In this document: piece by piece, positions 3,752 through 61,921 of the stretch | Layout of the letters: each line of letters starts with the position of its first letter | How positions within the stretch are numbered: position 1 is the first letter of the stretch | DNA from: Chrysomallon squamiferum | Lineage: Eukaryota; Animalia; Mollusca | Reading direction: 5' to 3' | NCBI GenBank assembly: GCA_012295275.1 | Contig: CM022673.1 | Span: 9,114,001-9,178,000, forward strand | Length of the DNA: 64,000 bases | Position numbers and translations under genes: made by a program | Notes under the pieces: model-generated | Seen by the model: only the letters and a program-made list of their open reading frames with translations | What the model was told of the DNA's origin: nothing | Databases searched by the model: none

Positions 3752-5248
3752 TACTGTGTACCTTGACTTACGAGTTTAATTCGTTCCGTGACCGAGCTCG
3801 TATTTCAATTTGTTCGTATACCAAATCAATTTTCCCAACTGAAATAAATTGAAATACCATTAATCCGTTCTAGCCCTACAAAAATCACTTCATTTTTTTT
3901 TTTTTTTTTTTTTTTTTAACGTGTTTTTAAATAATAAAAAAGGGTATTTATAAATGACAAATATTGTATGAAAACAAAATAAAAGAGAATGTAAAGAAAT
4001 AAATTGTTTTCGTAAAGTGTCTTTATCTTAGAGAAGAGACAAATTATTTTAACACCTGTGGCTGGAGTTATAGCCTTTGTCGACTCCTTCAGCTTCAGTA
4101 CGGTACACATCGTAGAAGTAGTACGCTCGTACTGCCTAGCCAAGTATGACGGTAAACCGGTTTTTTTTTTGGTTTTTTTTTATCTTACGTAGTAGGGCCC
4201 TTAGCCATACCCTAATAGGGCCTCGTTCAAGCTGTGGAAAGTTTTCTCAGCGATAATTAGAAATTAGATGTACTGTTTACTGTGTTTCTTTAGCAAAATG
4301 GTCCTAACTTTTTTACTAAGCCACAGATCGCAATTTAGTTTACACCTATTTATAGAACTCGCTGGTAGCTATTTTTATTTTTATTATTTTTTTTTTTTTA
4401 CTTATTACAGTATTTTATATTGTTGTACTTTTAAGATACAGTTGCTTTTGAAAATGTCGGTAACATATTTACTATTTACCTAAATAGCTTACTTTAATAC
4501 AGTTTAACATCCCGTAATTAACCTGTATGCATCATTAAAGTAAATAAATATGTTAACCATTCATTTCTACAAATATTCCTAACAATATGTATTAATTAAG
4601 TACCTAATGTTAGTTAACAGTAATCCAATTAATGAAGTCACCTAACAATTAACGATCATTAGCGAGAGACAAAAGGAATTTTTGTCAGCTCAGCTCTGCT
4701 GACTTCAGGGACGTCCGCGACGTGTTTATTTAAGTAAAAGACAAAAGAGACGAGAGAGACAAAGAACAAAGAGAAGACACGGGTTGGAGTGGGTGGTTGG
4801 CGGCCATTATTAGGCAATTATGTCGGTAACTACATTTTGGAAGCAGTGACAAATGGTTATCCTGCTTCTGTATGGTCTGTTTGATTTGTTGATCAATTTG
4901 ATGTAACCTGTATATTCTCCATAGAGAGTTTGAATTATATATTTATTTGTAACAAAATCTGTTAAGGAAAATTAAAAGAATTAAGAATTATAGTATTTCA
5001 TTAAACGCCAACTCCCACGTCCTCAACCACTAAATGATAACTATACACGTGTGAAATAAAAAGAAGTAACCGCGGCGAGGTAACCACGTGAAGTAAACGA
5101 GTGACATGCGGAATGCTGGCGGAAAAGCTGAAGTTCGCTCGTAAGTCGGATATTGGCTCGCAACTCAAAGCAAGAAGTCGGCCGGGCGACTGTTCGTTGG
5201 TCGAAAAACTCGTAAGTTGGAGCACTCGTAAGTCGAGGTACCACTGTA
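3752..5248 (-). mobile_element. Internally deleted Tigger/pogo DNA transposon (copy 1) carrying a nested insertion
   Basis: Left end ta-ctgtgtaccttgacttacgag and right end ctcgtaagtcgaggtaccactg-ta are inverted repeats bounded by TA. The minus-strand fragment ending at 4143 (ARQYERTTSTMCTVLKLKESTKAITP) resembles the CENP-B/psq HTH N-terminus of Tigger transposases. Homologous to 50309-51027. Confidence 0.85.
4190..4995 (+). repeat. Unclassified interspersed repeat nested in the Tigger element
   Basis: Aligns by eye, in inverted orientation, with ~45740-46662 (e.g. cctaacaattaacgatcattagcgagagacaaaaggaatttttgtcagct vs agctgacaaaaattccttttgtctctcgctaatgatcgttaattgttagg). Absent from the second Tigger copy. 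Boundaries approximate. Confidence 0.8.
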
Positions 5249-5586
5249 TTATTAATATTATTTTATCTTTGAATCAGATATTGATTGTATAAAAATGCAG
5301 CTTAATTCTAATTGTAAGAAAAAATAGATTTGATCTTTTCGCTCATTTTAACTCGGCGAGTATGGCGACTCAAAAAATTATTTTGACAACTTTACCATAA
5401 TGTTATGATAATTAATATGTCACATAACTAATAATTTGAGCATTTGAGTTAACTGCTATAACACAACGTTATGATAATTATTAAGTCACGTAACTAATAG
5501 TTAACCAACACAGTAACACTTATAACAACATTCACGAAGTTCGTTTTAATCTCGGAACAGACCCATTTTCATTTATGACATAAATA

Positions 5587-5934: not shown

Positions 5935-6959
5935 CTATTGACCTTTACCAGCAACAGTTTCTTTGACCCTTGTTAAACTCATCCATTGTCGACGTTTTTC
6001 CCAAAAAGTCATATTTTTCAAACGTTTATCTTGCTCCTTTTTCATTATCTCCAACTTGTCAAAAAACTCGTGAATCCTAAGTTCAACAGGTTTGCGCCTG
6101 AAGCTACGTTTGCTGCTTCCCATTGCTGATATGACGTCAAATTCTGAAACCGGTTCCTTGTTCAACAAGCCCGTGGCCAAATCTAAAAACGGCTTGTCCT
6201 CTAACATTTCGGGTTTGATTGCGGATATTCCGTTAGACTGTTCTAACGGGATGTCGTCAACTTTGGAAAATGAATGAAATTTTGATTCCGGCGCTCCAAT
6301 CCATCGATCGCTGGGCAAGTTAGAGACAGCCAAAGACTGGCCTCCCGGAATACTGTCCACTTTGTTAAACGAATAAAACCCACCTTCTCTCGGACGAGCC
6401 CAGCACTCGCTAGCAATTAAATCGACTACTTTGGGACAAGAAATCCGCGACGAACCATTCTGGATTCTTTTAAGGAGTATTGATTCAATATTGGTCTCCG
6501 TCAGCTCCTTCAGAAGGAGTTCATCCTCCTGGTCCTTTTCGCGTAACTGTCGGAGAAATTCTTCAGCTTGTTCGTGCGTTGTCGGTACTTTCCGTTGTTG
6601 ATGACGTATCATTTCTAGTTGAGACTTCGTGCGATGCGGAAGGGCGGTTGTTGCTGCTCGTGGAACAGCGGAGACCCCACCTGATATTCCAGCGGCACCG
6701 CTCCTGTTTCCAGGGGGAGCGGTCTGGATTTTGTTTCTGGATTTTCGTGAAGCATGTTGCAGCAGTTCGTTTGAAGATTTTCCCTCCAGCAATCTGAAAT
6801 GCATAAAAGATAAATTAAACCTGCTTAGGCAACATGTTCGAAATGGTTTAGTTTTTTTGTTGTTGTTGTTTCTGCATTCTGACTTTTGTATTAAAGAGTC
6901 ATTTATTTATTTATTTATTTATTTATTTACTTTTAATTATTTTAATTAATTAATTAATT

Positions 6960-12214: not shown

Positions 12215-12623
12215 TATTTTATTTTATTTTATTTTTATTATTATTATTTTGATTAAATTTTTATAATTTTGTTTTTTGTTACTGTTGTTTTTTATTATTT
12301 TGCTTTTGTATTGTATTATTTCTGTTCTTGTTCTTTTTGTTAGTTTATTTAGTTATTTATTTATTGTTATTTATTTATTTCTTCTTTTTTTAATACACTT
12401 ACCTGTAGTTATGAGGATTCAGATTGGATTCGCAGATTCTGATTTCTTTGAGGAACTCATATTGACTCACTCTGTCTCTGGCCATGTGTTTCACTATCAG
12501 TTTCTGTTGCTCTTCAAACTGACACATCGCTTTCCTCAGATTTAGCGAAGCCAGACTGTTCCTATTCTTCAGTTCTCGCATCGAGGCCGAATTTTTGAAA
12601 AAACTTGCACCTTTCCTGTCCAT
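5935..12623 (-). CDS. Uncharacterised ~359-aa protein; coding exons 12623-12403 and 6793-5935
   Basis: Exon A starts ATG (MDRKGASFFKN...) and ends AG|gtaagt in phase 2. Exon B has acceptor tttcag|A at 6793 in the matching phase and is open for 285 codons to TAG. It is the longest ORF in the window, with non-repetitive coding-like composition. The 3' end could instead splice at G|gtaaag or G|gtcaat just before the stop. Confidence 0.75.
7555..8240. repeat. (CT)n, (CTAT)n, (TA)n and (AC)n microsatellite cluster (intronic)
   Basis: Directly visible simple repeats. Confidence 0.9.
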
Positions 12624-14289
12624 TTCGTTGTCTCGATTATTATGGGAAATGCCTTAGAATCATCAATGTCTTACATCAAAGCTTGTGGAGAATTTACTTG
12701 CTGTGGGGAATATACACCACAGGGTAATGTTCTGGAAATCTAGACAGACATGTATTTATTAAAAGTGTCTCTTTTTTTAATTTTGATTTATTTAATATCT
12801 TGTCCCAAATTCCGTGTAGAATAATAATCAATAGTCGAAACAGAACAGTCTTTTACCGTTTCAGCCAAAAAGAAAGCAAATGTTAATATTGTCTTACTTC
12901 CATTTTAATAATGAAGAAAACCCCAAAAAAATGTATATGAACACAAAGAGAAATTAAATAAATAAAATTAAGACTGAACATCCAACAAACTCAGTGTTTT
13001 CTTGACTGAAATATTAAATATCTCTTAAACTTTACAACGATTTCCTTACGAAACCTTTGCCTTCCATAATCCACGTCAATTAACTGCTGGTTCATCACTC
13101 AAGAAAGATCTTGATTCAAATTTCCTTTTCTGCTGACAACCTTCCAGTTCAGATTCAGTTTTGTATCTCTCTTCCAGCAAAGAAAATAAACCATGTACGT
13201 ATACGAGATTTATACAGTTTGTGGCATAATATGCATTATTTTTTTCTCTATACCTACAACTTAGCTGAATATTAGATCGGTTACCTAATTTGGTTATATC
13301 TTCGCCACAAGAAATATCACCTTTAAAGCGATTATCTTTAATCCACAGAAACCACATATACGGATCCAGGGGGTGGGAGGGGGAACACCTACCCTTAATA
13401 CTTATCCACCTTTTTATTGCAGACTGATACTTCATGTTTTTTTTCTTTCTTGATATTGTATTTGATTTCAAGTTATAGCCACCCGACGAAGGTATTCCCT
13501 AAACACTTTTCTGAAATGTTGGATACTCCCTTGGAACAGACTGTTAGAAGAAAACACTGTACTGGACAATAATATTACGTAAAGGTTTTCTTTTATTACT
13601 CTCTTGAGAAAAGTTGTAGTTGTTCCATAATACAGAAAGAGAGATTAACAACGTGTATTCGTTTTTAATTAGGTATTATCATTAATCCTGAAGTTTATCT
13701 GTTATTGTTATGTTCAACAAGTGTATAAATGGTATAGCAAAGGTTACCAAAGATCCCATTGTGAATTATTTTATCTGATATTGAAAAACACCATAGCCAC
13801 ATGATACTGCAATCATCTTAGTGGTGATAAATCGAGGCTAAATCATCATCATCATCATTTTTAATCATCATGATAAAATAGTATTTATTTATTTATTTGC
13901 TTATTTACTTAGTTATTAATCTATTTGTTTATTTAACTATATTTATTTTATTTTATTTTATTTATGTTCCTACATCTAGTAGTGGTGTTATTGTTTGATT
14001 AATTATAGACGATATATTCAAAATGTTTTATTTGAATCCTGGAAGGAATCAACACACACCGCCAGTATTTTTATTTCTTTATTAATTTGTTGGGTTTTTT
14101 GGCGCACCGATTTTTCTTTACAGTGATACCCTCTTTTCTTCATGTTGGATCCGGTTCTGACTTCTACTGTCAAACAGCTACGAATATCAAAGATTTGTTT
14201 TTGATTGTGAGAAAGAATGGAAACATGTGAAAGTCATTCATAAAAGAAATATAGATATTTATACACAAGACATTTTTTTTCTTTTCAGT

Positions 14290-36308: not shown

Positions 36309-36442
36309 ACGAAAACTTAAGAATGCGTGCGTATGCACGTATATGCATCAGATTACATTTATATATGTATGTATGGTGTATTAGTATGTTTCAAAGTAAA
36401 CGTTATTAAAACAAACAAAAACAAAAAACAAAAAAAAAATTG

Positions 36443-36611
36443 GTTATATGAATGAACTTAATAACAGGTTACTGATAAATTCTTAGCCTGCTAGACGTTT
36501 AACAATGTAAACAATACTGTGGGGAAATGACGGCGAACTGTAAATACTTATACATTACTTAACAGCAAATGAAACCGCGATCTGGGAAATAATCTTACGT
36601 TCCACGTGTCT
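36443..36611 (+). repeat. 169-bp direct repeat, copy 1 (intron 1 of precursor B)
   Basis: gttatatgaatgaac...gttccacgtgtct, nearly identical to 38206-38374. Confidence 0.95.
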
Positions 36612-38205
36612 GTGTCTTTGTCCGCAAAATTTGTATTTTTTTATTTTAATTTAAATTATTTTTAAATTAATGTCTCAGTAGCGAATAAAAAACTGTCCCC
36701 GGCTGCAGCAACTTACAAGAAATTTGAATACGACCATGAAAAGACGCAAACTTTGAGAATAAATGTTAACAGTTTCAAACTTTTGTTTTTACAAATGTTA
36801 ATATCATCTTCTTCTTCAAATAATACTGTCATTTCATTTTAAAAGTCAGCTATGGTCTAAAATGGAAGTTCAGAAAAACAGTTATCTGATTCCTTACATT
36901 TGAGATAAAGACAGAGACATTTATTGAATTTCCACCAGGTTCCTGCAACAGATGGAAGCCTGCTGACAATTAACCGTTAGATGGTTATTTTATAATAAAT
37001 ATGATCAATGCGTGACTTCCAAAATAAAACAAATTAGATCAACAGCTCTATTTAAGAGGAGTCGTCAAGAACTGAATGAAACAACTTTGTATCTAATCAT
37101 AAATTGTCTGTTAAAGACTGTGGTTATACTGATCCATAGCGAATGCTTATAGATGCAACGCTTTTACATTCTTGTCATAATAAACTCCGTGAAAAAAAAA
37201 AAAAAAAATGACTAGATCAAAGTGTTGATGTTACATTATGAATGGGAATAAGAATAGAAGAGAATCATAAAACTTCGCTATAAAGTACAGCAATAATTGG
37301 GGAATGCAGATTTCTATGTTTAATAAGATAACCAGGCGCAGATTTTTGAAAAACAAAAACGCTGACGTAGGTGAATATAGAAAATATGATCTAAAACGTT
37401 AGGCAAACGAGAAAGAACTATGTGGAAGATGCGGATGATGCGGATTCGAAAAGTCACATAGCAACGTCCAGCTACGGATAAACAATGCGATAAATTTGAT
37501 CGTTTTTCTAAACTGAGCAGAACTAAATCTGTGCCAGTCGATATCGTTGATTATCACGGTCATTGTGATGAACAATTCATTGCATTTTATAAGACATATT
37601 CTCCAGAAGACAATTTGCATAAAGTTTAAGCTATGAATTCTCTAAGTTTCATGCTGTCCTTCAAAGATGAAAAACTCTGAAAAGTCACATATATCTACTG
37701 AAAATAATCCACAGTTTTCTTCTGTAGATTTTACAAAACTATATGAAGATTATGGCATTGATCATTTTATTTTTTCTCCAAACTACGTCCCAGTGATGAA
37801 GCAAAGAGGGCTATACAGACATTTAACAAACTTTGGTCTAAAACCAGTGATAAGCAATTGTCTTAGTTAGACTATCAAACATCTGCATTGTTAAGCAGTT
37901 TCTCAAGCCCAAGTTGTATGATATCAGTAATGAAAGTATGTGCGTAGGCACAGATACAGAGAACAAACAAATAAAAAAAGATAAGAAGAGAGATCCCCAG
38001 AGAGGACGGTCCCAATGTCAGATACTGATAAATGTACTGTGTCTTTGTTCTAGTCCTCTTATATGCAACAAAAATAAGTACAAACGTAACGTGTCAACTT
38101 CATCTGCGAAACACGAAAGATACAAGAAGAATCTTCATTACTTCCGATACATGGATGGAATAAATATGACGTTATCCAAAAAAAAAAAAAAAAAGAAAAA
38201 GTAGT

Positions 38206-38374
38206 GTTATATGAATGAACTTAATAACAGGTTACTGATAAATTCTTAGCCTGCTAGACGTTTAACAATGTAAACAATACTGTGGGGAAATGACGGCGAA
38301 CTGTAAATACTTATACATTACTTCGCAGGAAATGAAACCGCGATCTGGGAAATAATCTTACGTTCCACGTGTCT
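38206..38374 (+). repeat. 169-bp direct repeat, copy 2
   Basis: Matches 36443-36611 except around cttaacagcaaatg vs cttcgcaggaaatg. Confidence 0.95.
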
Positions 38375-39445: not shown

Positions 39446-41375
<1,930 letters not shown>

Positions 41376-45040: not shown

Positions 45041-45624
45041 CAGAGTGTCCCAAAAGTAACCGAACCGCAAACTTAAATAAAATTAGATATTAAAAACAAC
45101 AAATTTAATCTGTATATTTAGTATTTACAAATGTTCAAAATGTCTACCTTGAACTTCAATACAATCACTGTTTTTGGACGACCTTTGTTAGGAGCATTTG
45201 ACACACTTCCAGTTACTTCAAATTTGGAAACAAGATTGAACACTGTCGATTTACTCGGTACAGGTGTTCTAAAGTTTACTTCCCATCTTTCTTCAACATG
45301 CTTGTAGCTAGTCATTGCATAGTAATCCTTAATAACGAAGATACGTTCGTTTAAATGTAAAGTTCTTCGCTGCATTTTTAAGAGTGAGGGTACCATTTCA
45401 AGTCAAACCATGGAGAATCCAGTAGCGCGCGATAAAACAGAAGTCTCGATCACGAAGAATACGACAATCAGGTAACAAAAATCATTCCAAAGAGTACTAC
45501 TGACAGAAGTAAATGAACAGTACAAAAGATAACATAAAATGACATAAAAGATGGAATTAAATTTGTTATTTTTAATATCTAATTTTATTTAAGTTTGCGG
45601 TTCGGTTATTTTTGGGACACCCTG
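45041..45624 (-). mobile_element. Internally deleted Tc1/mariner-superfamily element with DUF4817-like HTH fragment
   Basis: ~70-bp TIRs (cagagtgtcccaaaagtaaccgaaccgcaaacttaaataaaattagatattaaaaa... / ...tttttaatatctaattttatttaagtttgcggttcggttatttttgggacaccctg) with TA at 45039-40 and 45625-26. ORF 45396-45118 (ERIFVIKDYY...PSKSTVFNLVSKFEVTGSVSNAPNKGRPKTV) is a transposase N-terminal HTH with a GRPK motif. No DDE/D domain. Confidence 0.9.
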
Positions 45625-45739: not shown

Positions 45740-46662
45740 TTAAATTTTATAATTCCTATTTCTTTAATTTTCACTAACAGGGTATGTTAGAAATCTATAT
45801 AAATCAAACTCTCTATACAGGTTACATCAAACTGATCAACAAATCAAACAGAGCATACAGAAACAGGATAACCATTTGTCCCTGCTTCCGACTTAAACAA
45901 AGATTCATCTTTGCGTTATAACGTTATAACGCAAAATATAGTTAACAACATGGCCGCCAACTCCACAGTCCCACCCGTGTGTTCTCTTTGTTCTCTGTGT
46001 GTGGTATGGTATGGTATGGTATGGTATGGTAACTCTTTTTACGTGCACACGTCCAGTTCAAGGTTCAGGGACGCCTATCACTGGGATCGCCAGGGATGGG
46101 TTCCGGGACAGGATGTTCTCTGTGGTCTCACCACTTGGGCTCTTTTGTCTTTTATTAAATAAACATGTCGCGGACTTCTCTGAAGTCAGCAGAGCGTAGC
46201 TGACAAAAATTCCTTTTGTCTCTCGCTAATGATCGTTAATTGTTAGGCGATTTCATTAATTGGATTACTGTTAGCCAACAGTAGATATTTAATTAATAGA
46301 TACGTGTTAGGAATATTTGTAGAAATGAATGGGTTACATATTTACTTACTTCAATGATACATGCAGGAAATGTTAGACTGTATTAAAATAAGCTACTTAG
46401 GTAAATAATAAATATGTTACCGACATTTTCCAAAACTGTGCCTTAATAGTACAACAATATAAAATATTATAATAATGAAAAAAATAGCTACCAGCGGATT
46501 CTACAAGTACGTATAATCTAAATAGCAATCTGTCGTATAATAAATAAGTTAGGACCAATTTGCTAAGTTAAAGAAACACAGAAAACAGAATATCTAAATA
46601 CGGCTGTAAAAACTTTGCATAACTCGACCAAGGCCCTATTAGGTTATGGTTAAGGTCATACT
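45740..46662 (-). repeat. Second copy (inverted) of the unclassified repeat at 4190-4995
   Basis: Reverse-complement similarity along its length, interrupted by an insert at ~46000-46140. Boundaries approximate. Confidence 0.8.
46001..46140 (-). mobile_element. Probable 5'-truncated retroposon (SINE/LINE 3' end) with (TACCA)n tail
   Basis: (TGGTA)6 followed by ~110 bp of GC-richer sequence that is missing from the homologous position of the 4190-4995 copy. Confidence 0.5.
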
Positions 46663-49998: not shown

Positions 49999-50308
49999 TC
50001 ACACACACAGCCATCATGTAAAAATTCTTATGCTACACGACATCAACAACAACAATGCAAAAGTAACCCACAAAATTAAAATAAGAAAAAACAACCATAG
50101 ACTTAATATTAACACCTTCGAATAAATAGTATCTTACCTTTGTCGTACATACACATACTTATATCTACCCGTATATGCATACACATACACACACTCACAC
50201 GCCACAACATAAACACACACATGTTGAACATACATACATACATACATACATACATACATACATACATACATACATACATTCATACATACATACATACATA
50301 CATACATA

Positions 50309-51027
50309 GATTTACGAGTTTAATTCGTTCCGTGGCTAACCTCGTAACTCAATTTCCTCGTATATCAAATCTATTTTCCCAAATGAAACTAATTGAAATA
50401 CCATTAATGCGTTCCAGCCCCCACAAAAAAAAAAAAAACCCCAGTTTTTTGTAACGTGAATTTAAATAAGAAATATATATGTATAAATGATAAATATTGT
50501 ATAAAAAAAAAAAATAAAATAGAATGTAAAGAAATAAATTGGTTTTGTCAAGTGTACAGGATTAGGGTTTCTCCATCTTTTCATGGACAGAGGTCCGCTG
50601 CTTATAATTTTTTTTAACGTCTTTGGCTGGTTTTATAGCCTTTATCGACTCCTTCTGCTTCAGTGTGATATATATCATAAAAGTACTATGCTGTTACTGC
50701 CTAGCCATGTTGACTACCTCGCTCATGTTTTTCTATGATTTCATGCTTTAATTCAATGGACATCATCCTCTTCTTCTTCTCAGCTCTGTCCTTTGCTCTC
50801 ACTTCATTAGGATCCATGGAAATTTGGCAAAATACTGCACAAAACAACAGAGATGCTTCCGCGGCGAGGTAACCACGTGAAGCAAATGATGCTGGATGGA
50901 TGTTGTGTTGTTCGTTGCGCCAACTAGCGGCGGCGTATCTGAAGCTCGCTCGTAACTCGGATTTTGGCTCGCAACTGAAAGCAAAAAATCGACCGGGCTG
51001 CTGCTCGAAACTCGAAGTAGCACTGTA
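50309..51027 (-). mobile_element. Internally deleted Tigger/pogo transposon (copy 2)
   Basis: Starts gatttacgagtttaattcgttccgtg (outer TIR lost in a TACA tract) and ends ctcgaagtagcactg-ta. The minus strand encodes MDPNEVRAKDRAEKKKRMMSIELKHEIIEKHERG (Tigger/TIGD1-like N-terminus) before a frameshift. Collinear with 3752-4150 and 5040-5248. Confidence 0.85.
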
Positions 51028-51256
51028 TACATACATACATATACATATATACATATCAATATACATAAATAACTCTTTGTTAAAATGAAAAGCCCAAAAT
51101 GTTTATGGGTGGCCATAATGAATGCTAGAATGCTTAAAGCAAAAACAACAAAGAGTCAAAACAGTTTTCAAAAGCTAGAAACACTGTACTTCTATGACCA
51201 GTATCAAACTTGATCCAGGAGATGACATCCTTCAAAATTATTTGAAAAGCGTGACA

Positions 51257-52017: not shown

Positions 52018-52137
52018 TCTTTCGCAAGGTCGTTGATCCGGGTGTGATATTGCGCAATGCGTATAGATTTCAAAAATTCCCCTAAATTCAAAAATTCGAC
52101 TATAAATAAGAGTGAGTGGAAGGACAAGTCATCATTC
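52018..52137 (+). promoter_or_regulatory. Promoter of the BRICHOS-like AMP gene: C/EBP palindrome, kappaB-like site, TATA box, Inr
   Basis: ATTGCGCAAT 52049-52058 (perfect C/EBP palindrome), TTTCGCAA ~52020-52027, AAAATTCCCC 52073-52082 (GGGGAATTTT on minus), TATAAATA 52101-52108, TCATTC 52132-52137, ATG at 52194. Confidence 0.7.
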
Positions 52138-52193: not shown

Positions 52194-53472
52194 ATGAAGG
52201 TAAACTTTTATTTATCTTTGTTATTTTTCTTTTTAAATGTATGTATTAATACTTTAAACTTTTTTCTTTTTTTTTATCAATCACAGTGTTAGTATTGCAT
52301 TTCATTATAAATTTTTAAGGCACATTGTAAGAAAGCGTTCAATTTATATAAAAACTTAGAATGCTTTACGGTGCTTATTTTTTATTTTATTATTTTTCCT
52401 TTTTTACTGCGTCGTATATTTTATAGAGTGCTACGTTAAATGAACTAAACAGAATAATTTCTTGACGTCTCCTTTATTTTTTATCATTTTCTTAACTCTT
52501 TTAAACTTAAATTTAAAACAAAATCAAATAAATTATCAAATAAACAAACATTACTGAAAAAGAAAAAACTAAAAGAAAAAACCCCACGGAAATAAAAAAA
52601 AAAACCATAAAGAAAACAAAACAATTTAAATTATTATTATTATTATTATTTCTATTTCCTATTTATTTTATTTTTCAGTTTGCACTTGTCATTGTTGCAG
52701 TTTTCCTGCTACAGTTCACAAATGCGCTGCCTGTAAGTAACTTTTTAGTTTTCAGCTTAGTTTGAATTTGATTATTAGATTTTGTTAATGCGTGTTTATT
52801 ACAAATTTTTATTATTTTCTTAATTTATTTTATTTTTTGTTGTTGTCGTTTTTGATGTTGCTTTTTTTGTTATTTTCAAAATACACAGCCTAACTTTACT
52901 AATATTAATACATACTTATATAAATAGAAATCTACGGAGTTGTTTCAAACACCAGACGGACATATGTACAAAGTTCAGATGGACAGAAATGGAAAAGAGA
53001 TCATTTCAAGAGATGGAGAAGACGACGAAATTACCGTTGCTTTGCACGAACAGGTAAGTAAAATTTCAAAAGTTTTAATATTATTATTATTGTTGTTGTT
53101 GTTGTTGTTGTTCTTGTTAATAAAGCATAAATTCTTGTACCTTTTACCAGAATACTACATAAAGAATTTGGTTCCAAAACGCTATAAATCCCTTTTACCT
53201 GATTTGAGAAAAATGACTATTTCTGCTCTGGAGTTTATGACGTTTTATAAGAAAGGTCTATAGAATTCTGGTGGAAATATTTATGGGCGTTGAACAGCCG
53301 TCAAAAGCTGAAAATTTGGTGACGGTTTCCCTTAAATTTTATTTTGGCGTTTTGGAATTAAACTCTTCATATTTACAAACCACACACACACAAACACACA
53401 CACACACACATACACAGAACCAAAGAGACAAAGGGAGGGAGGGACACACAGAACACAGAGAACACAGAGACC

Positions 53473-53530
<58 letters not shown>

Positions 53531-54394
53531 CATTGATGAACATATATATTTGCAGGGCAAGTGGGTGGTGATTATGCCAAATGACAACACCACGTGTTAC
53601 GTCATCGACATGACAGAGAAAGAAATCCAGGCCAAAGCTACGGTAAGTCAGTTTGTAAATTTAATAGAGAAAGAAAATGTATTTTATATAACGAATCACT
53701 CATCAATTTTTGATGTTGGTCGCCAAAAGTAACTAAGGTTAATGACGATACAGATAGCGAAAAAGAAAAAGAGAAATAATGGATGTTTATACTACCCACA
53801 GACAAGAAAATATAATGATATTAATTATTATTATTTGTTATTGTTGTTGTTGTTGTTGTTGTTGCTGCTGTTGTTATTATTATTATTATTATACTACTTT
53901 TCAGGATCTGGACTTTGAGACGGACGATTATGAAATGAAGACTGTACAGGAGGAGGTTGACGTTAAAGTAAAAGAGACTTGTGAGAAACAAGGCAGAAAA
54001 GGCATCGACATCATCCAACTAGGACCGAAAGAACACACAGACACTGTACCCGCCTTATCCCAGGGTAAATTATGAATTAATTATTTAACTGTGAATTCAA
54101 ATATTTAATTAGAATGACTCAAATTCACGAATAAAAAATAATAATGATAAATAATAAATAAATAAATAAAGCAACGGATATATACATATAAAATCGTACG
54201 ATTGTGTATATGATATAAACCCAAAATACATTCATTTGTTTTAAAATATTTAACAATTTTGTTTTTGTACTACAGGTGGAAAGATTGTCAAACGTTCGTG
54301 GTGTTTAGGAAGACGATGTGTCATCTACAGAATCACAATCAGGGGACGAAGCTACCTTTACATCCGCTGCTGGTACTACTACAGATACTGTTAA
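52194..54394 (+). CDS. Prepro-antimicrobial peptide, BRICHOS-like/arenicin-like (183 aa); exons 52194-52199, 52679-52732, 52928-53053, 53556-53642, 53905-54064, 54276-54394
   Basis: Five GT-AG introns (phases 0,0,0,0,1) give a 552-nt uninterrupted ORF: MKFALVIVAVFLLQFTNA-LPKSTELFQTPDGHMYKVQMDRNGKEIISRDGEDDEITVALHEQGKWVVIMPNDNTTCYVIDMTEKEIQAKATDLDFETDDYEMKTVQEEVDVKVKETCEKQGRKGIDIIQLGPKEHTDTVPALSQGGKIVKR-SWCLGRRCVIYRITIRGRSYLYIRCWYYYRYC*. Signal peptide, acidic propiece with two Cys (CYV and VKETC, BRICHOS-like), KR site, cationic Cys-rich tail. TATA upstream, AATAAA at 54509. Confidence 0.9.
54296..54391 (+). other. Predicted mature 32-aa cationic beta-hairpin peptide SWCLGRRCVIYRITIRGRSYLYIRCWYYYRYC
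   Basis: Follows KR (54290-54295). Seven Arg, no acidic residues, Cys at 3, 8, 25 and 32; C8-x16-C25 with a central RG turn. Confidence 0.8.
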
Positions 54395-54508
54395 ATGTCA
54401 CTGCAGCTTCATGAACTTTGATTATTTTTCAGAATTTAACGTATCCAGTACAACGTCTCGTTTTCTAATGCTATCTTACTAAATATCCTGACTTTGATTG
54501 TAAACGTA

Positions 54509-54519
54509 AATAAAATAAA
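54509..54519 (+). terminator. Polyadenylation signal(s) of the AMP gene
   Basis: Overlapping AATAAA hexamers ~115 nt after the stop, followed by a GT/T-rich tract (tgtttttgtttgtttt). Confidence 0.65.
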
Positions 54520-54692
54520 ATTAATGAAACTGTTTTTGTTTGTTTTATGAGTGTGATTTGTTAGATGTTAGTTTATATACATTTTGATTATAAACCCAGT
54601 CTTTTTTCTTTCTTTCTTTTTCTTTTTACAAAATAGTAAGTAATTTAAAATTGTCATTTCACTTTATTCACATCTTTTCCTAATATCTGAAA

Positions 54693-59680: not shown

Positions 59681-60773
59681 AAAAAAAATTTAAAAAGTGA
59701 AATTCCATTCAAACAAATTCACAAAGTAGCGTAATGAGAGAGCACTTTACAAAATAATCTGATTAATCTGATGAATTTCACCAGAAACATCCTGGAAGAC
59801 GAAAGTTAATGCTGTAGTGGTTAGTAAATAGATAATTAGTTTTGAATACAGGATACAGCCTATATTGCTTTTCTTCGTTTTCTTCTCTTTCTATACATTA
59901 TTTATTATCGTCGTTATTATTACTATTATTTATGTAGTTTTGTTATTGTTGCTGTTGATGATGATGATGAATATGATGATGATGATGATGATGATGACGC
60001 AGAATTCAAAGATATTGTTGTAAACGAAGCAAAGCAAAAGATAATAACGAACGTAGAAACCATCACAGAAACTTTAATCACACTTTCCAAGATTTTTCCC
60101 ATCGCCAGTAAGTGGGAACAGAAGATGGGTGGGTGGGTGGGCGGCGGGAAGGAATGGATTTCCTAAATGTCAACTGAAACAAATTAACTCCCAAATGAGT
60201 GACGTTATCTGATTGACCTACGCATGGGGTCGTGTTTGCGGGTCTTCTCGGGGCTTTGAAGCGGCGGTAATACCATCGGGCGAACAATCGCCGTCTTCTG
60301 CGGTATATGACTGACCCTTATCATTGCCTTGTGCCAGTTAGGAAGGCGGAAAATTCGACCTGACCAGCGAAGTGGGATTTTCCAAGAAGACGTGGTAGAA
60401 ACTGACAGTTCGTTATTTCGTCAGCCAAACGAAGTTGCGGCCTTTAATATTATCTTTATACATGGCTTGGCTTCAATCAGCTTGCGCTCTATCGGATGTT
60501 TACATTAATATCGCATGTCAAATCGGTTTAGCTTATGGAGTTAGTCGTCTAGGCAAGGAGTTTCGCGTTCGGATCGCTCGAGTGGAAAAGGAGTGCGTCT
60601 CTTGGCACGGGCCTCTGATGGCTTTTCGCGGTTCTTGTCGCTCACGTGGAAGGGACGCGAGGCTTGTGCCATATCGAGTATGAGTTTCAGGAGACGTCAT
60701 CCAGAAACGGCGATCGACCAAGTGAAAATAAGCAAAGGACTTCAACCTGAAAGCGAAAAGGCAGCCGGTAAAT

Positions 60774-61136
60774 TTATCTTTCCGTAAGGATATACGGCTT
60801 GAAGAAGCAATCTTTACCGAGATGTGAGATTTTATTAAAAAGTTGCGCGCAATTTTTCGCCACGCGTATCTTGTCGTTCGATGGCCGATTTAACACGATT
60901 CCTTCGCTTTGAGTCGAGACAGATTTTTGGAAACCATTAGGCGTACAATATTGCGCAAAATATAGTTTAAGTCTGCTTGCCCTGCTTGCGACATCATCGG
61001 TGTAAACACGTGGTTGATTGTCCATCCATCTGAAATGCTGATTTAAATCAGCCACGAATAATGCTGGATATTTAGCGTCAGAACGAAACAGATTAGTAAA
61101 TAATTTGACAGGTTGAAAATATACTAGTCTGTTCGA
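60774..61136 (-). CDS. Possible terminal coding exon (120 aa) of an unidentified or decayed gene
   Basis: Strong acceptor (T-run + cag, 61138-61137) followed by a phase-0 open frame SNRLVYFQPVKLFTNLFRSDAKYPALFVADLNQHFRWMDNQ...PYILTER* in a GC-elevated, non-repetitive block. No family recognised and no upstream exon identified. Confidence 0.3.
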   Translation of the reverse strand, partial: SNRLVYFQPVKLFTNLFRSDAKYPALFVADLNQHFRWMDNQPRVYTDDVASRASRLKLYFAQYCTPNGFQKSVSTQSEGIVLNRPSNDKIRVAKNCAQLFNKISHLGKDCFFKPYILTER

Positions 61137-61921
61137 CTGAAAAAAAAAAAAAGGTTATTTCATTGACACATATATTTTCTTTCTTAATTTCTTAGACCCA
61201 TTTGGATGCTTCCCATTACTACAGAGAGGGTTTCCCTTCTTGTAAAACTAAACCAAAACATTAGTCGCCTAATACAAACATGGACCAGGTTTTACTCAGT
61301 AATGAAATACAGACTAACGTACATTTATATACATACATACACACATACATTCACGCACACATATCCATGTGCACGGTTATTCGTAGACACAACGCGAAAA
61401 TAGACAATTATAGAAACTTCTTGCCACCATTCTATTTAACAGCAGCAACAGTGAAATTTTATTTATTCCATGATTAACCTTTTATATCAAGTGGGATTAC
61501 TATACTTAAGTAGATGAAATCATCCATTAATTTGGTCCCAGCTATTTCAAAAGTTTCTTTACATTTAGACCCATATATATGAATTTAAAAAAAAAAAAAA
61601 AATTGGGGGGGTGATTGTTGTTGTTTTTGAGAGGTTGCTGTTGTTGTTGTTTGTTATTTTGTTTGTTTGTTGTTGTTTTTTTTTTTTTTTTTTTTTTACA
61701 GTTATCTGAATTGTATCATTACATTCGAGAAACTAAGAAAAATATCGACTGAACAGGAAACCTCCAGTGACTGCATATATTTATCGTAAGTTTTAGATGA
61801 GCTTTTAATAAAACATCTGGCATTTTGAAATTCTTTGTTTCCAACACTCAGAATTAATTGTTTAGTCAACTGTATGTTTAGAAAGAGTAGAAAGAAAGTT
61901 ATAAGTAAGATAATAGATAGA

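Follow-up and report, generated by a model that had tools for sequence, protein, structure and literature searches.

A six-exon precursor gene

The window, by which we mean the whole 64,000-nucleotide stretch of DNA, carries a gene on its forward strand at 52194 to 54394. It encodes a small precursor with a hydrophobic N-terminus, an acidic propiece, a Lys-Arg (KR) site and a cationic tail with cysteines. We argue that the propiece is a shortened, divergent BRICHOS domain and that the tail is a releasable hairpin antibiotic, as in the worm precursors that join BRICHOS to an antimicrobial peptide (BRICHOS-AMPs). We put the probability of this whole reading at roughly 0.6. Six exons splice into an uninterrupted frame of 183 amino acids (aa) plus a stop. 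The five introns are 479, 195, 502, 262 and 211 nucleotides (nt) long, each runs from GT to AG, and their phases in order are 0,0,0,0,1. The parts of the gene are these:

52101..52106, + strand: TATA-like box (TATAAA), 93 nt 5' of the ATG, from a sequence scan; putative function
52194..52199, + strand: coding part of exon 1 (Met-Lys), with the 5' untranslated region further upstream; a joint skipping 479 nt is present in runs X14, X16 and X10
52679..52732, + strand: exon 2 (54 nt), coding for the hydrophobic core of a predicted signal peptide that spans about residues 1-18, and for the first part of the propiece
52928..53053, + strand: exon 3, predicted strands b1', b2', b1 and b2
53045-53047, + strand: His60, at the position of the BRICHOS invariant Asp
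53556..53642, + strand: exon 4, predicted strands b3 and b4 and short helix 1; Cys76 at 53595-53597; N-glycosylation sequon at N73
53905..54064, + strand: exon 5, predicted strand b4', helix 2 with Cys117 (53980-53982), strand b5 and linker; ends in phase 1
54276..54394, + strand: coding part of exon 6, with linker, KR site, mature peptide and stop
54290..54295, + strand: Lys-Arg, predicted convertase site, conserved in Gigantopelta aegis
54296..54391, + strand: predicted mature peptide of 32 aa, with 4 Cys, charge +7 and 9 aromatic residues
54317-54370, + strand: inner loop Cys159-Cys176, 16 residues with Arg-Gly at the centre
54509..54514, + strand: AATAAA polyadenylation-type signal in the 3' untranslated region, from a sequence scan

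The splicing evidence consists of assembled contigs, which say nothing on expression level, strand or tissue. X14 and X16 are RNA on record, and X10 is taken as RNA by the tool's guess. One X10 contig (record 1, 671 nt) falls into six contiguous pieces that correspond to the six exons, with 12 differing letters in total. Joints for introns 1, 2, 3 and 5 are seen in X14, X16 and X17 between them, and the joint of intron 4 is visible only as contiguous record coordinates. RNA contigs cover the 3' untranslated region up to about 54484-54592. A dibasic site followed by a Cys-rich cationic tail and a stop occurs twice in the window, where 60 shuffles gave 0.15 matches on average (at least one match in 7 of them, and never more than 2). 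The second match has no further support, and by itself this pattern is modest evidence for a gene. The six-exon gene is real and spliced, since exons 3-5 are colinear with a protein of G. aegis and spliced contigs exist. An earlier reading made from the letters of the window (the sequence-only reading) had proposed this model, its phases, the acidic propiece, the KR and a cationic hairpin. The splice sites, the frame and the contigs bear out the model, and the reading's rejection of a bacterial or retroposed origin is supported too.

A palindrome, TTGCGCAA, lies 5' of the TATA box at 52050-52057. It recurs in the otherwise dissimilar upstream loose end of an X14 paralogue contig. We take it to be C/EBP-site-like and a possible inducible-promoter element.

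The precursor and its predicted peptide

The N-terminus is hydrophobic, with a best 12-aa hydropathy of 2.85 starting from residue 4. The propiece has a net charge of -10 and two cysteines, Cys76 and Cys117. KR at residues 150-151 precedes the 32-aa C-terminal peptide, which has 4 Cys, a net charge of +7, no Asp or Glu and 9 aromatic residues. Further dibasic sites stand at 122-123 and 157-158, and alternative cuts are possible. The precursor thus has the four-part layout of the BRICHOS superfamily: a hydrophobic region, a linker, a domain and a beta-prone C-terminal region after a convertase site. Passages of PMC10745061 recognise BRICHOS-AMPs by furin-type cleavage at K/R-R and a cationic Cys tail. 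A cationic Cys-containing peptide after K/R-R is what we find here, and the hairpin and its disulfide pattern are predicted.

Homologues and host

A 53-aa query from exon 5 against 1.84 billion representatives returned 2 matches. The better one is G. aegis XP_041354458.1 (LOC121372233, "uncharacterized"), a full-length homologue at 51% identity (E 4e-65). Exons 3, 4 and 5 each match it colinearly (E 4e-14, 3e-11 and 5e-14), and exon 4 is the best conserved, with 22 of its 29 residues identical. The two snail proteins share both propiece cysteines at a spacing of 41, the His, an IVKR site, and a tail of charge +7 without an acidic residue. They differ in that the G. aegis tail has 38 aa and 8 Cys, against 32 aa and 4 Cys in the window, and its RefSeq N-terminus is longer. 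Identity is 12/32 residues in the tail against 76/124 in exons 3-5; judged by these aligned residues, the tail diverges faster than the propiece between the species.

A 69-aa unnamed fragment (P0004) resembles exon 5, has the second Cys and ends at a likely splice donor. It is probably another animal relative. The second-ranked cluster in an ESM Atlas feature search has 67 members of about 191 aa, mostly from Mollusca and without a common Pfam family (score 0.87), and is likely the wider family. No annelid protein appeared among the 2 matches to the 53-aa query or among 116 candidates, and both searches are insensitive at that distance. Worm BRICHOS-AMP propieces are about 33% similar among themselves.

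The sequence-only reading suspected a mollusc. The full-length G. aegis homologue agrees, as do the three main exons of each of two neighbouring neuropeptide genes, which match a G. aegis protein at 65-91%. This species is a neomphaline gastropod of the peltospirid group that lives at vents and carries endosymbionts (as described in parts of PMC7895826). GC content is 31% in the window and 37.22% in G. aegis. The likenesses make a neomphaline snail related to G. aegis the very likely host, probably one from deep-sea vents, and the GC content speaks against G. aegis itself. Which relative counts as "nearest" depends on which genomes are annotated. That the family is present in a mollusc does not hang on the host, because the G. 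aegis protein suffices alone.

Is the propiece a BRICHOS domain?

The fold is one line of reasoning. BRICHOS cores follow the order b1' b2' b1-4 a1 b4' a2 b5 (excerpts of PMC9714404). Two AlphaFold models, made from alignments of 4-5 rows (pLDDT, the predicted local distance difference test, of 39 and 50), show six strands, a short helix, a strand, a helix and a strand, which is the same order. In both of these low-confidence models the sixth strand bears Cys76 and the second helix Cys117 (Cys90 and Cys131 in G. aegis), and the two could form a disulfide. Searches of solved structures with both models were uninformative.

The ESM Atlas points the same way. In the feature search with the G. aegis homologue, ranks 1, 3 and 4 are BRICHOS clusters (0.86-0.87, with 181-187 of 256 features shared). 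All ten of the best family-bearing matches lie in the BRICHOS family or clan, though scores below 0.9 are a lead only and one third of shuffled proteins also reach 10/10. Rows 1-3 of 10 in the structure search are again BRICHOS clusters, with template modelling (TM) scores of 0.50, 0.55 and 0.45, under the tool's bar. We count the feature and structure results as one lead.

Gene structure is the third line. The Fig. S6 legend of PMC4002450 gives alvinellacin six exons, a first intron of 442 nt, and introns in phase 0 except for the last, in phase 1. The window gene has the same exon count, the same phases and a similarly large first intron (479 nt). The chance of matching exon count and phases is about 0.015, using assumed phase frequencies. 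This pattern argues for BRICHOS, not for an antimicrobial peptide or for orthology to the worm genes.

Several observations weigh against this assignment. The Pfam profile PF04089 gave no match at E<=10 with four separate exons, with the full G. aegis homologue or with its 114-aa domain. Only three residues are invariant across the family, D144, C160 and C219 in ITM2A numbering (parts of PMC2751770). Both snails have His at -16 from the first Cys and no Asp from -20 to -12, by offset and not by structural alignment. The Cys spacing is 41 in both, against 59 in ITM2A. LolA-like bacterial clusters come next in the Atlas structure rows (TM 0.42). We do not file the propiece as a member of PF04089, because it was tested for two defining features, the profile and the Asp, and has neither. 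The sequence-only reading called it BRICHOS-type. That label loses the profile and the invariant Asp, and it keeps the Atlas neighbours under their bars, the order of strands and helices, and the gene structure. On the models and these likenesses, we still consider BRICHOS ancestry or fold highly probable.

A multigene family with divergent tails

The gene is one of several copies. In DNA run X4, exon 6 is present in at least three versions, two of them with different intron flanks. One version has 7 differences from the window; another has 14, together with another intron flank and 3' end. In the third, a 66-nt core cannot be aligned at 80% while its flanks can. RNA run X14 has the same 66-nt gap, next to a 3' piece with only 9 differences over 208 nt. 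Of 92 aligned contigs from X14 and X16, 45 are at least 90% alike to the window copy and only 3 are at 99% or above. An X16 paralogue end (a 30-letter loose end, read by eye) keeps the Cys-Trp and the terminal Cys spacing and changes 7 of 10 residues.

These tails suggest positive selection. Selection specific to the tail is not established, because the propiece exons also differ mostly at non-synonymous positions (5/6 and 5/7 codons among the differences listed). Passages of PMC5431198 describe the reverse in Alvinella, where the AMP exon is monomorphic and BRICHOS is variable. Among the snail copies the tail varies.

Proposed mechanism and alternatives

In our scenario the precursor would enter the secretory pathway, and the propiece would be closed by a disulfide between Cys76 and Cys117. 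Its acidic sheet would hold and neutralise the aromatic, aggregation-prone hairpin until a furin-type convertase cuts after KR and frees the peptide. The freed peptide would fold into a beta-hairpin with nested disulfides, Cys159-Cys176 inside and Cys154-Cys183 outside. Like arenicin and alvinellacin, it could then disrupt bacterial membranes and so kill bacteria or hold them in check; the arenicin class acts by membrane permeabilisation (parts of PMC9756803). By analogy with these peptides, the predicted one is probably antimicrobial. We think it likely that a Pfam-invisible, Asp-less, shortened BRICHOS-like family in snails works like the worm BRICHOS-AMPs.

Not everything fits an antibiotic. 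The X16 paralogue end has two Arg fewer and an additional Asp; a strong positive charge is therefore not a feature of every copy. The hairpin of human Bri23 is not antimicrobial (a statement in PMC6780910). Gene structure is no proof of an antibiotic either, because gastrokines also have six exons. As to vents, the Atlas cluster of mostly molluscan proteins tempers the idea of a symbiont role: the family may be common across molluscs and have nothing to do with symbiosis.

One can imagine a gastrokine-like or Bri2-like secreted BRICHOS protein instead. Its aromatic hairpin would be a mucus, matrix or signalling component, chaperoned because it aggregates and not because it is an antibiotic. 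We find this doubtful, and it is the alternative that survives best. According to sections of PMC4199881, gastrokines GKN1-3 are proteins of 181-184 aa with a signal peptide, BRICHOS and a C-terminal segment that is divergent, and their genes have six exons and short introns. BRICHOS proteins occur in 11 phyla and 14 families, of which only one family is AMP (parts of PMC10182729). The Atlas neighbours are cnidarian, chordate and OAF (Out at First) clusters, none labelled AMP. The aromatic share of the tail (9/32) and the less cationic paralogue end would suit such a protein as well. What it explains poorly is a tail of +7 without an acidic residue in both snails, with an arenicin-like loop, in a multi-copy family whose tail diverges fast. 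The tails of non-AMP BRICHOS proteins (OAF, group C) are reported as highly conserved in passages of PMC9714404 and PMC2751770, although the gastrokine tail is divergent.

A second alternative keeps the antibiotic and gives up BRICHOS. The propiece would be an unrelated acidic, beta-rich prodomain (LolA-like or ependymin-like, for example) that neutralises a cationic peptide, and the likeness to the worm precursors would be convergent. This is unlikely. It does not account for the BRICHOS clusters at the top of both Atlas searches, for the placement of the cysteines on b4 and a2 as in BRICHOS, or for an exon count and phase order shared with alvinellacin at the chance given above. A third possibility, that the copy in the window is silent or degenerate and only other copies are in use, is very improbable. 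In its favour, few contigs match this copy at 99% or more, and the deepest in X14 and X16 differ from it. Against it, the frame and splice sites are intact, and X10 and X17 have spliced contigs with about 98% identity to this copy.

Novelty and meaning

According to reviews of 2019 and 2022, BRICHOS-AMPs are confined to polychaetes (passages of PMC6780910 and PMC9756803), and the BRICHOS examples in the parts of the 2025 and 2026 reviews that treat them are all annelid (PMC11767717, PMC13001179). Among the matches listed from the open literature, none describes a BRICHOS-AMP from a mollusc. The words "BRICHOS" and "antimicrobial" are absent from the main texts of two peltospirid genome papers. 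Published mining for BRICHOS-AMPs used BLASTP and HMMscan with the BRICHOS domain (methods passages of PMC10745061). The snail family escapes such mining. A molluscan BRICHOS protein is no surprise given the 11 phyla; one of the AMP type is.

A bolder scenario is possible, and we hold it only tentatively, with the odds against it. There would be a hidden molluscan branch of BRICHOS-AMPs in which a minimal, Asp-less chaperone serves as a cassette for fast-diversifying hairpin antibiotics. This branch would have expanded in peltospirid vent snails and would police endosymbionts and vent microbes, like alvinellacin in the Pompeii worm. If this were true, the origin of BRICHOS-AMPs would be pushed back to the ancestor of annelids and mollusks. 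Should the peptide prove active, the system would belong to lophotrochozoans and not to annelids alone, and it would be a fresh source of disulfide-stabilised hairpin antibiotics. The family is also a natural test of whether BRICHOS chaperoning needs the invariant Asp and the full helix-1 region. It supplies a concrete candidate for an effector in the symbiosis of vent snails.

Neighbouring genes and repeats

The Cys-containing neuropeptide genes noticed in the sequence-only reading are there in two copies, divergently oriented:

21424-16802, - strand: neuropeptide precursor gene
39446-40980, + strand: neuropeptide precursor gene

Both are homologous to G. aegis LOC121382127 and to a Haliotis protein, and neither has a Pfam match. 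A search with exon 2 of one copy yielded 2 proteins out of 5 candidates (G. aegis 90%, Haliotis 75%). The label QSamide/PXXXamide (PTH-like) is our assumption, from likeness and passages of PMC8398477 and not from alignment. The - strand copy has an extra exon-like piece near 19412-19266 that matches the second peptide in the Haliotis protein. This suggests that the gene is alternatively spliced, as the oyster gene is reported to be.

The remaining features are these:

5935-6906, - strand: 322-codon open frame without a credible Pfam match; probably the last exon of a larger gene, with possible upstream exons near 12402-12653 (- strand)
60150-61154, - strand: about 1 kb of raised GC with overlapping frames of 126 and 118 codons and no Pfam match; possibly a disrupted gene or what is left of a mobile element
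50701-51102, - strand: transposon-like remnant
5001-5273, - strand: transposon-like remnant, with about 70 nt in common with the previous one
45118-45402, - strand: transposon-like remnant with a DUF4817 helix-turn-helix match (E 6.6e-9)
4199-4749 and 46140-46655: dispersed repeat pair
3759-4150 and 50303-50714: dispersed repeat pair
36417-36611 and 38179-38374: dispersed repeat pair

The remnants at 50701-51102 and 5001-5273 are presumably Tigger-type starts. The dispersed repeats are 200-550 nt long at 72-95% identity. A receptor helix-8 motif had also been proposed. None could be confirmed at 60150-61154, and no receptor family appeared in the 12 + 134 frames scanned against Pfam.

Comparison with known systems

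OAF sets a precedent, as a BRICHOS member that was identified through structure and profile-profile comparison alone, and its clusters are among the Atlas neighbours (0.85-0.86). It differs from the snail protein in keeping the Asp, in a conserved 70-aa tail and in its size of 260-270 aa. Gastrokines share six exons, a similar size and a divergent tail with the snail gene. They differ in having a canonical, Pfam-positive BRICHOS, and the account in PMC4199881, as far as it describes them, gives no cationic AMP-type tail. We take it that gastrokines also have the same phases and a 54-nt exon 2. The sequence-only reading called the joining of chaperone and AMP characteristic of annelids. The layout is indeed that of the worm precursors, and it is gastrokine-like too.

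With the annelid precursors (preproalvinellacin, preprocapitellacin, preproarenicin and the HfBRI peptides) the snail protein shares a signal peptide, here predicted, an anionic propiece, a dibasic site, a cationic Cys tail and membership of a multigene family. It differs from them in its gastropod host, the lack of a PF04089 match, the change of Asp to His and about 18 fewer residues between the cysteines. Its tails, in the two snails, are 32-38 aa with 4-8 Cys. Arenicin-1 and -2 have a 16-residue Cys loop with a central Arg-Gly (Table 4 of PMC6780910), and the snail peptide has an inner loop of 16 residues with Arg-Gly at its centre.
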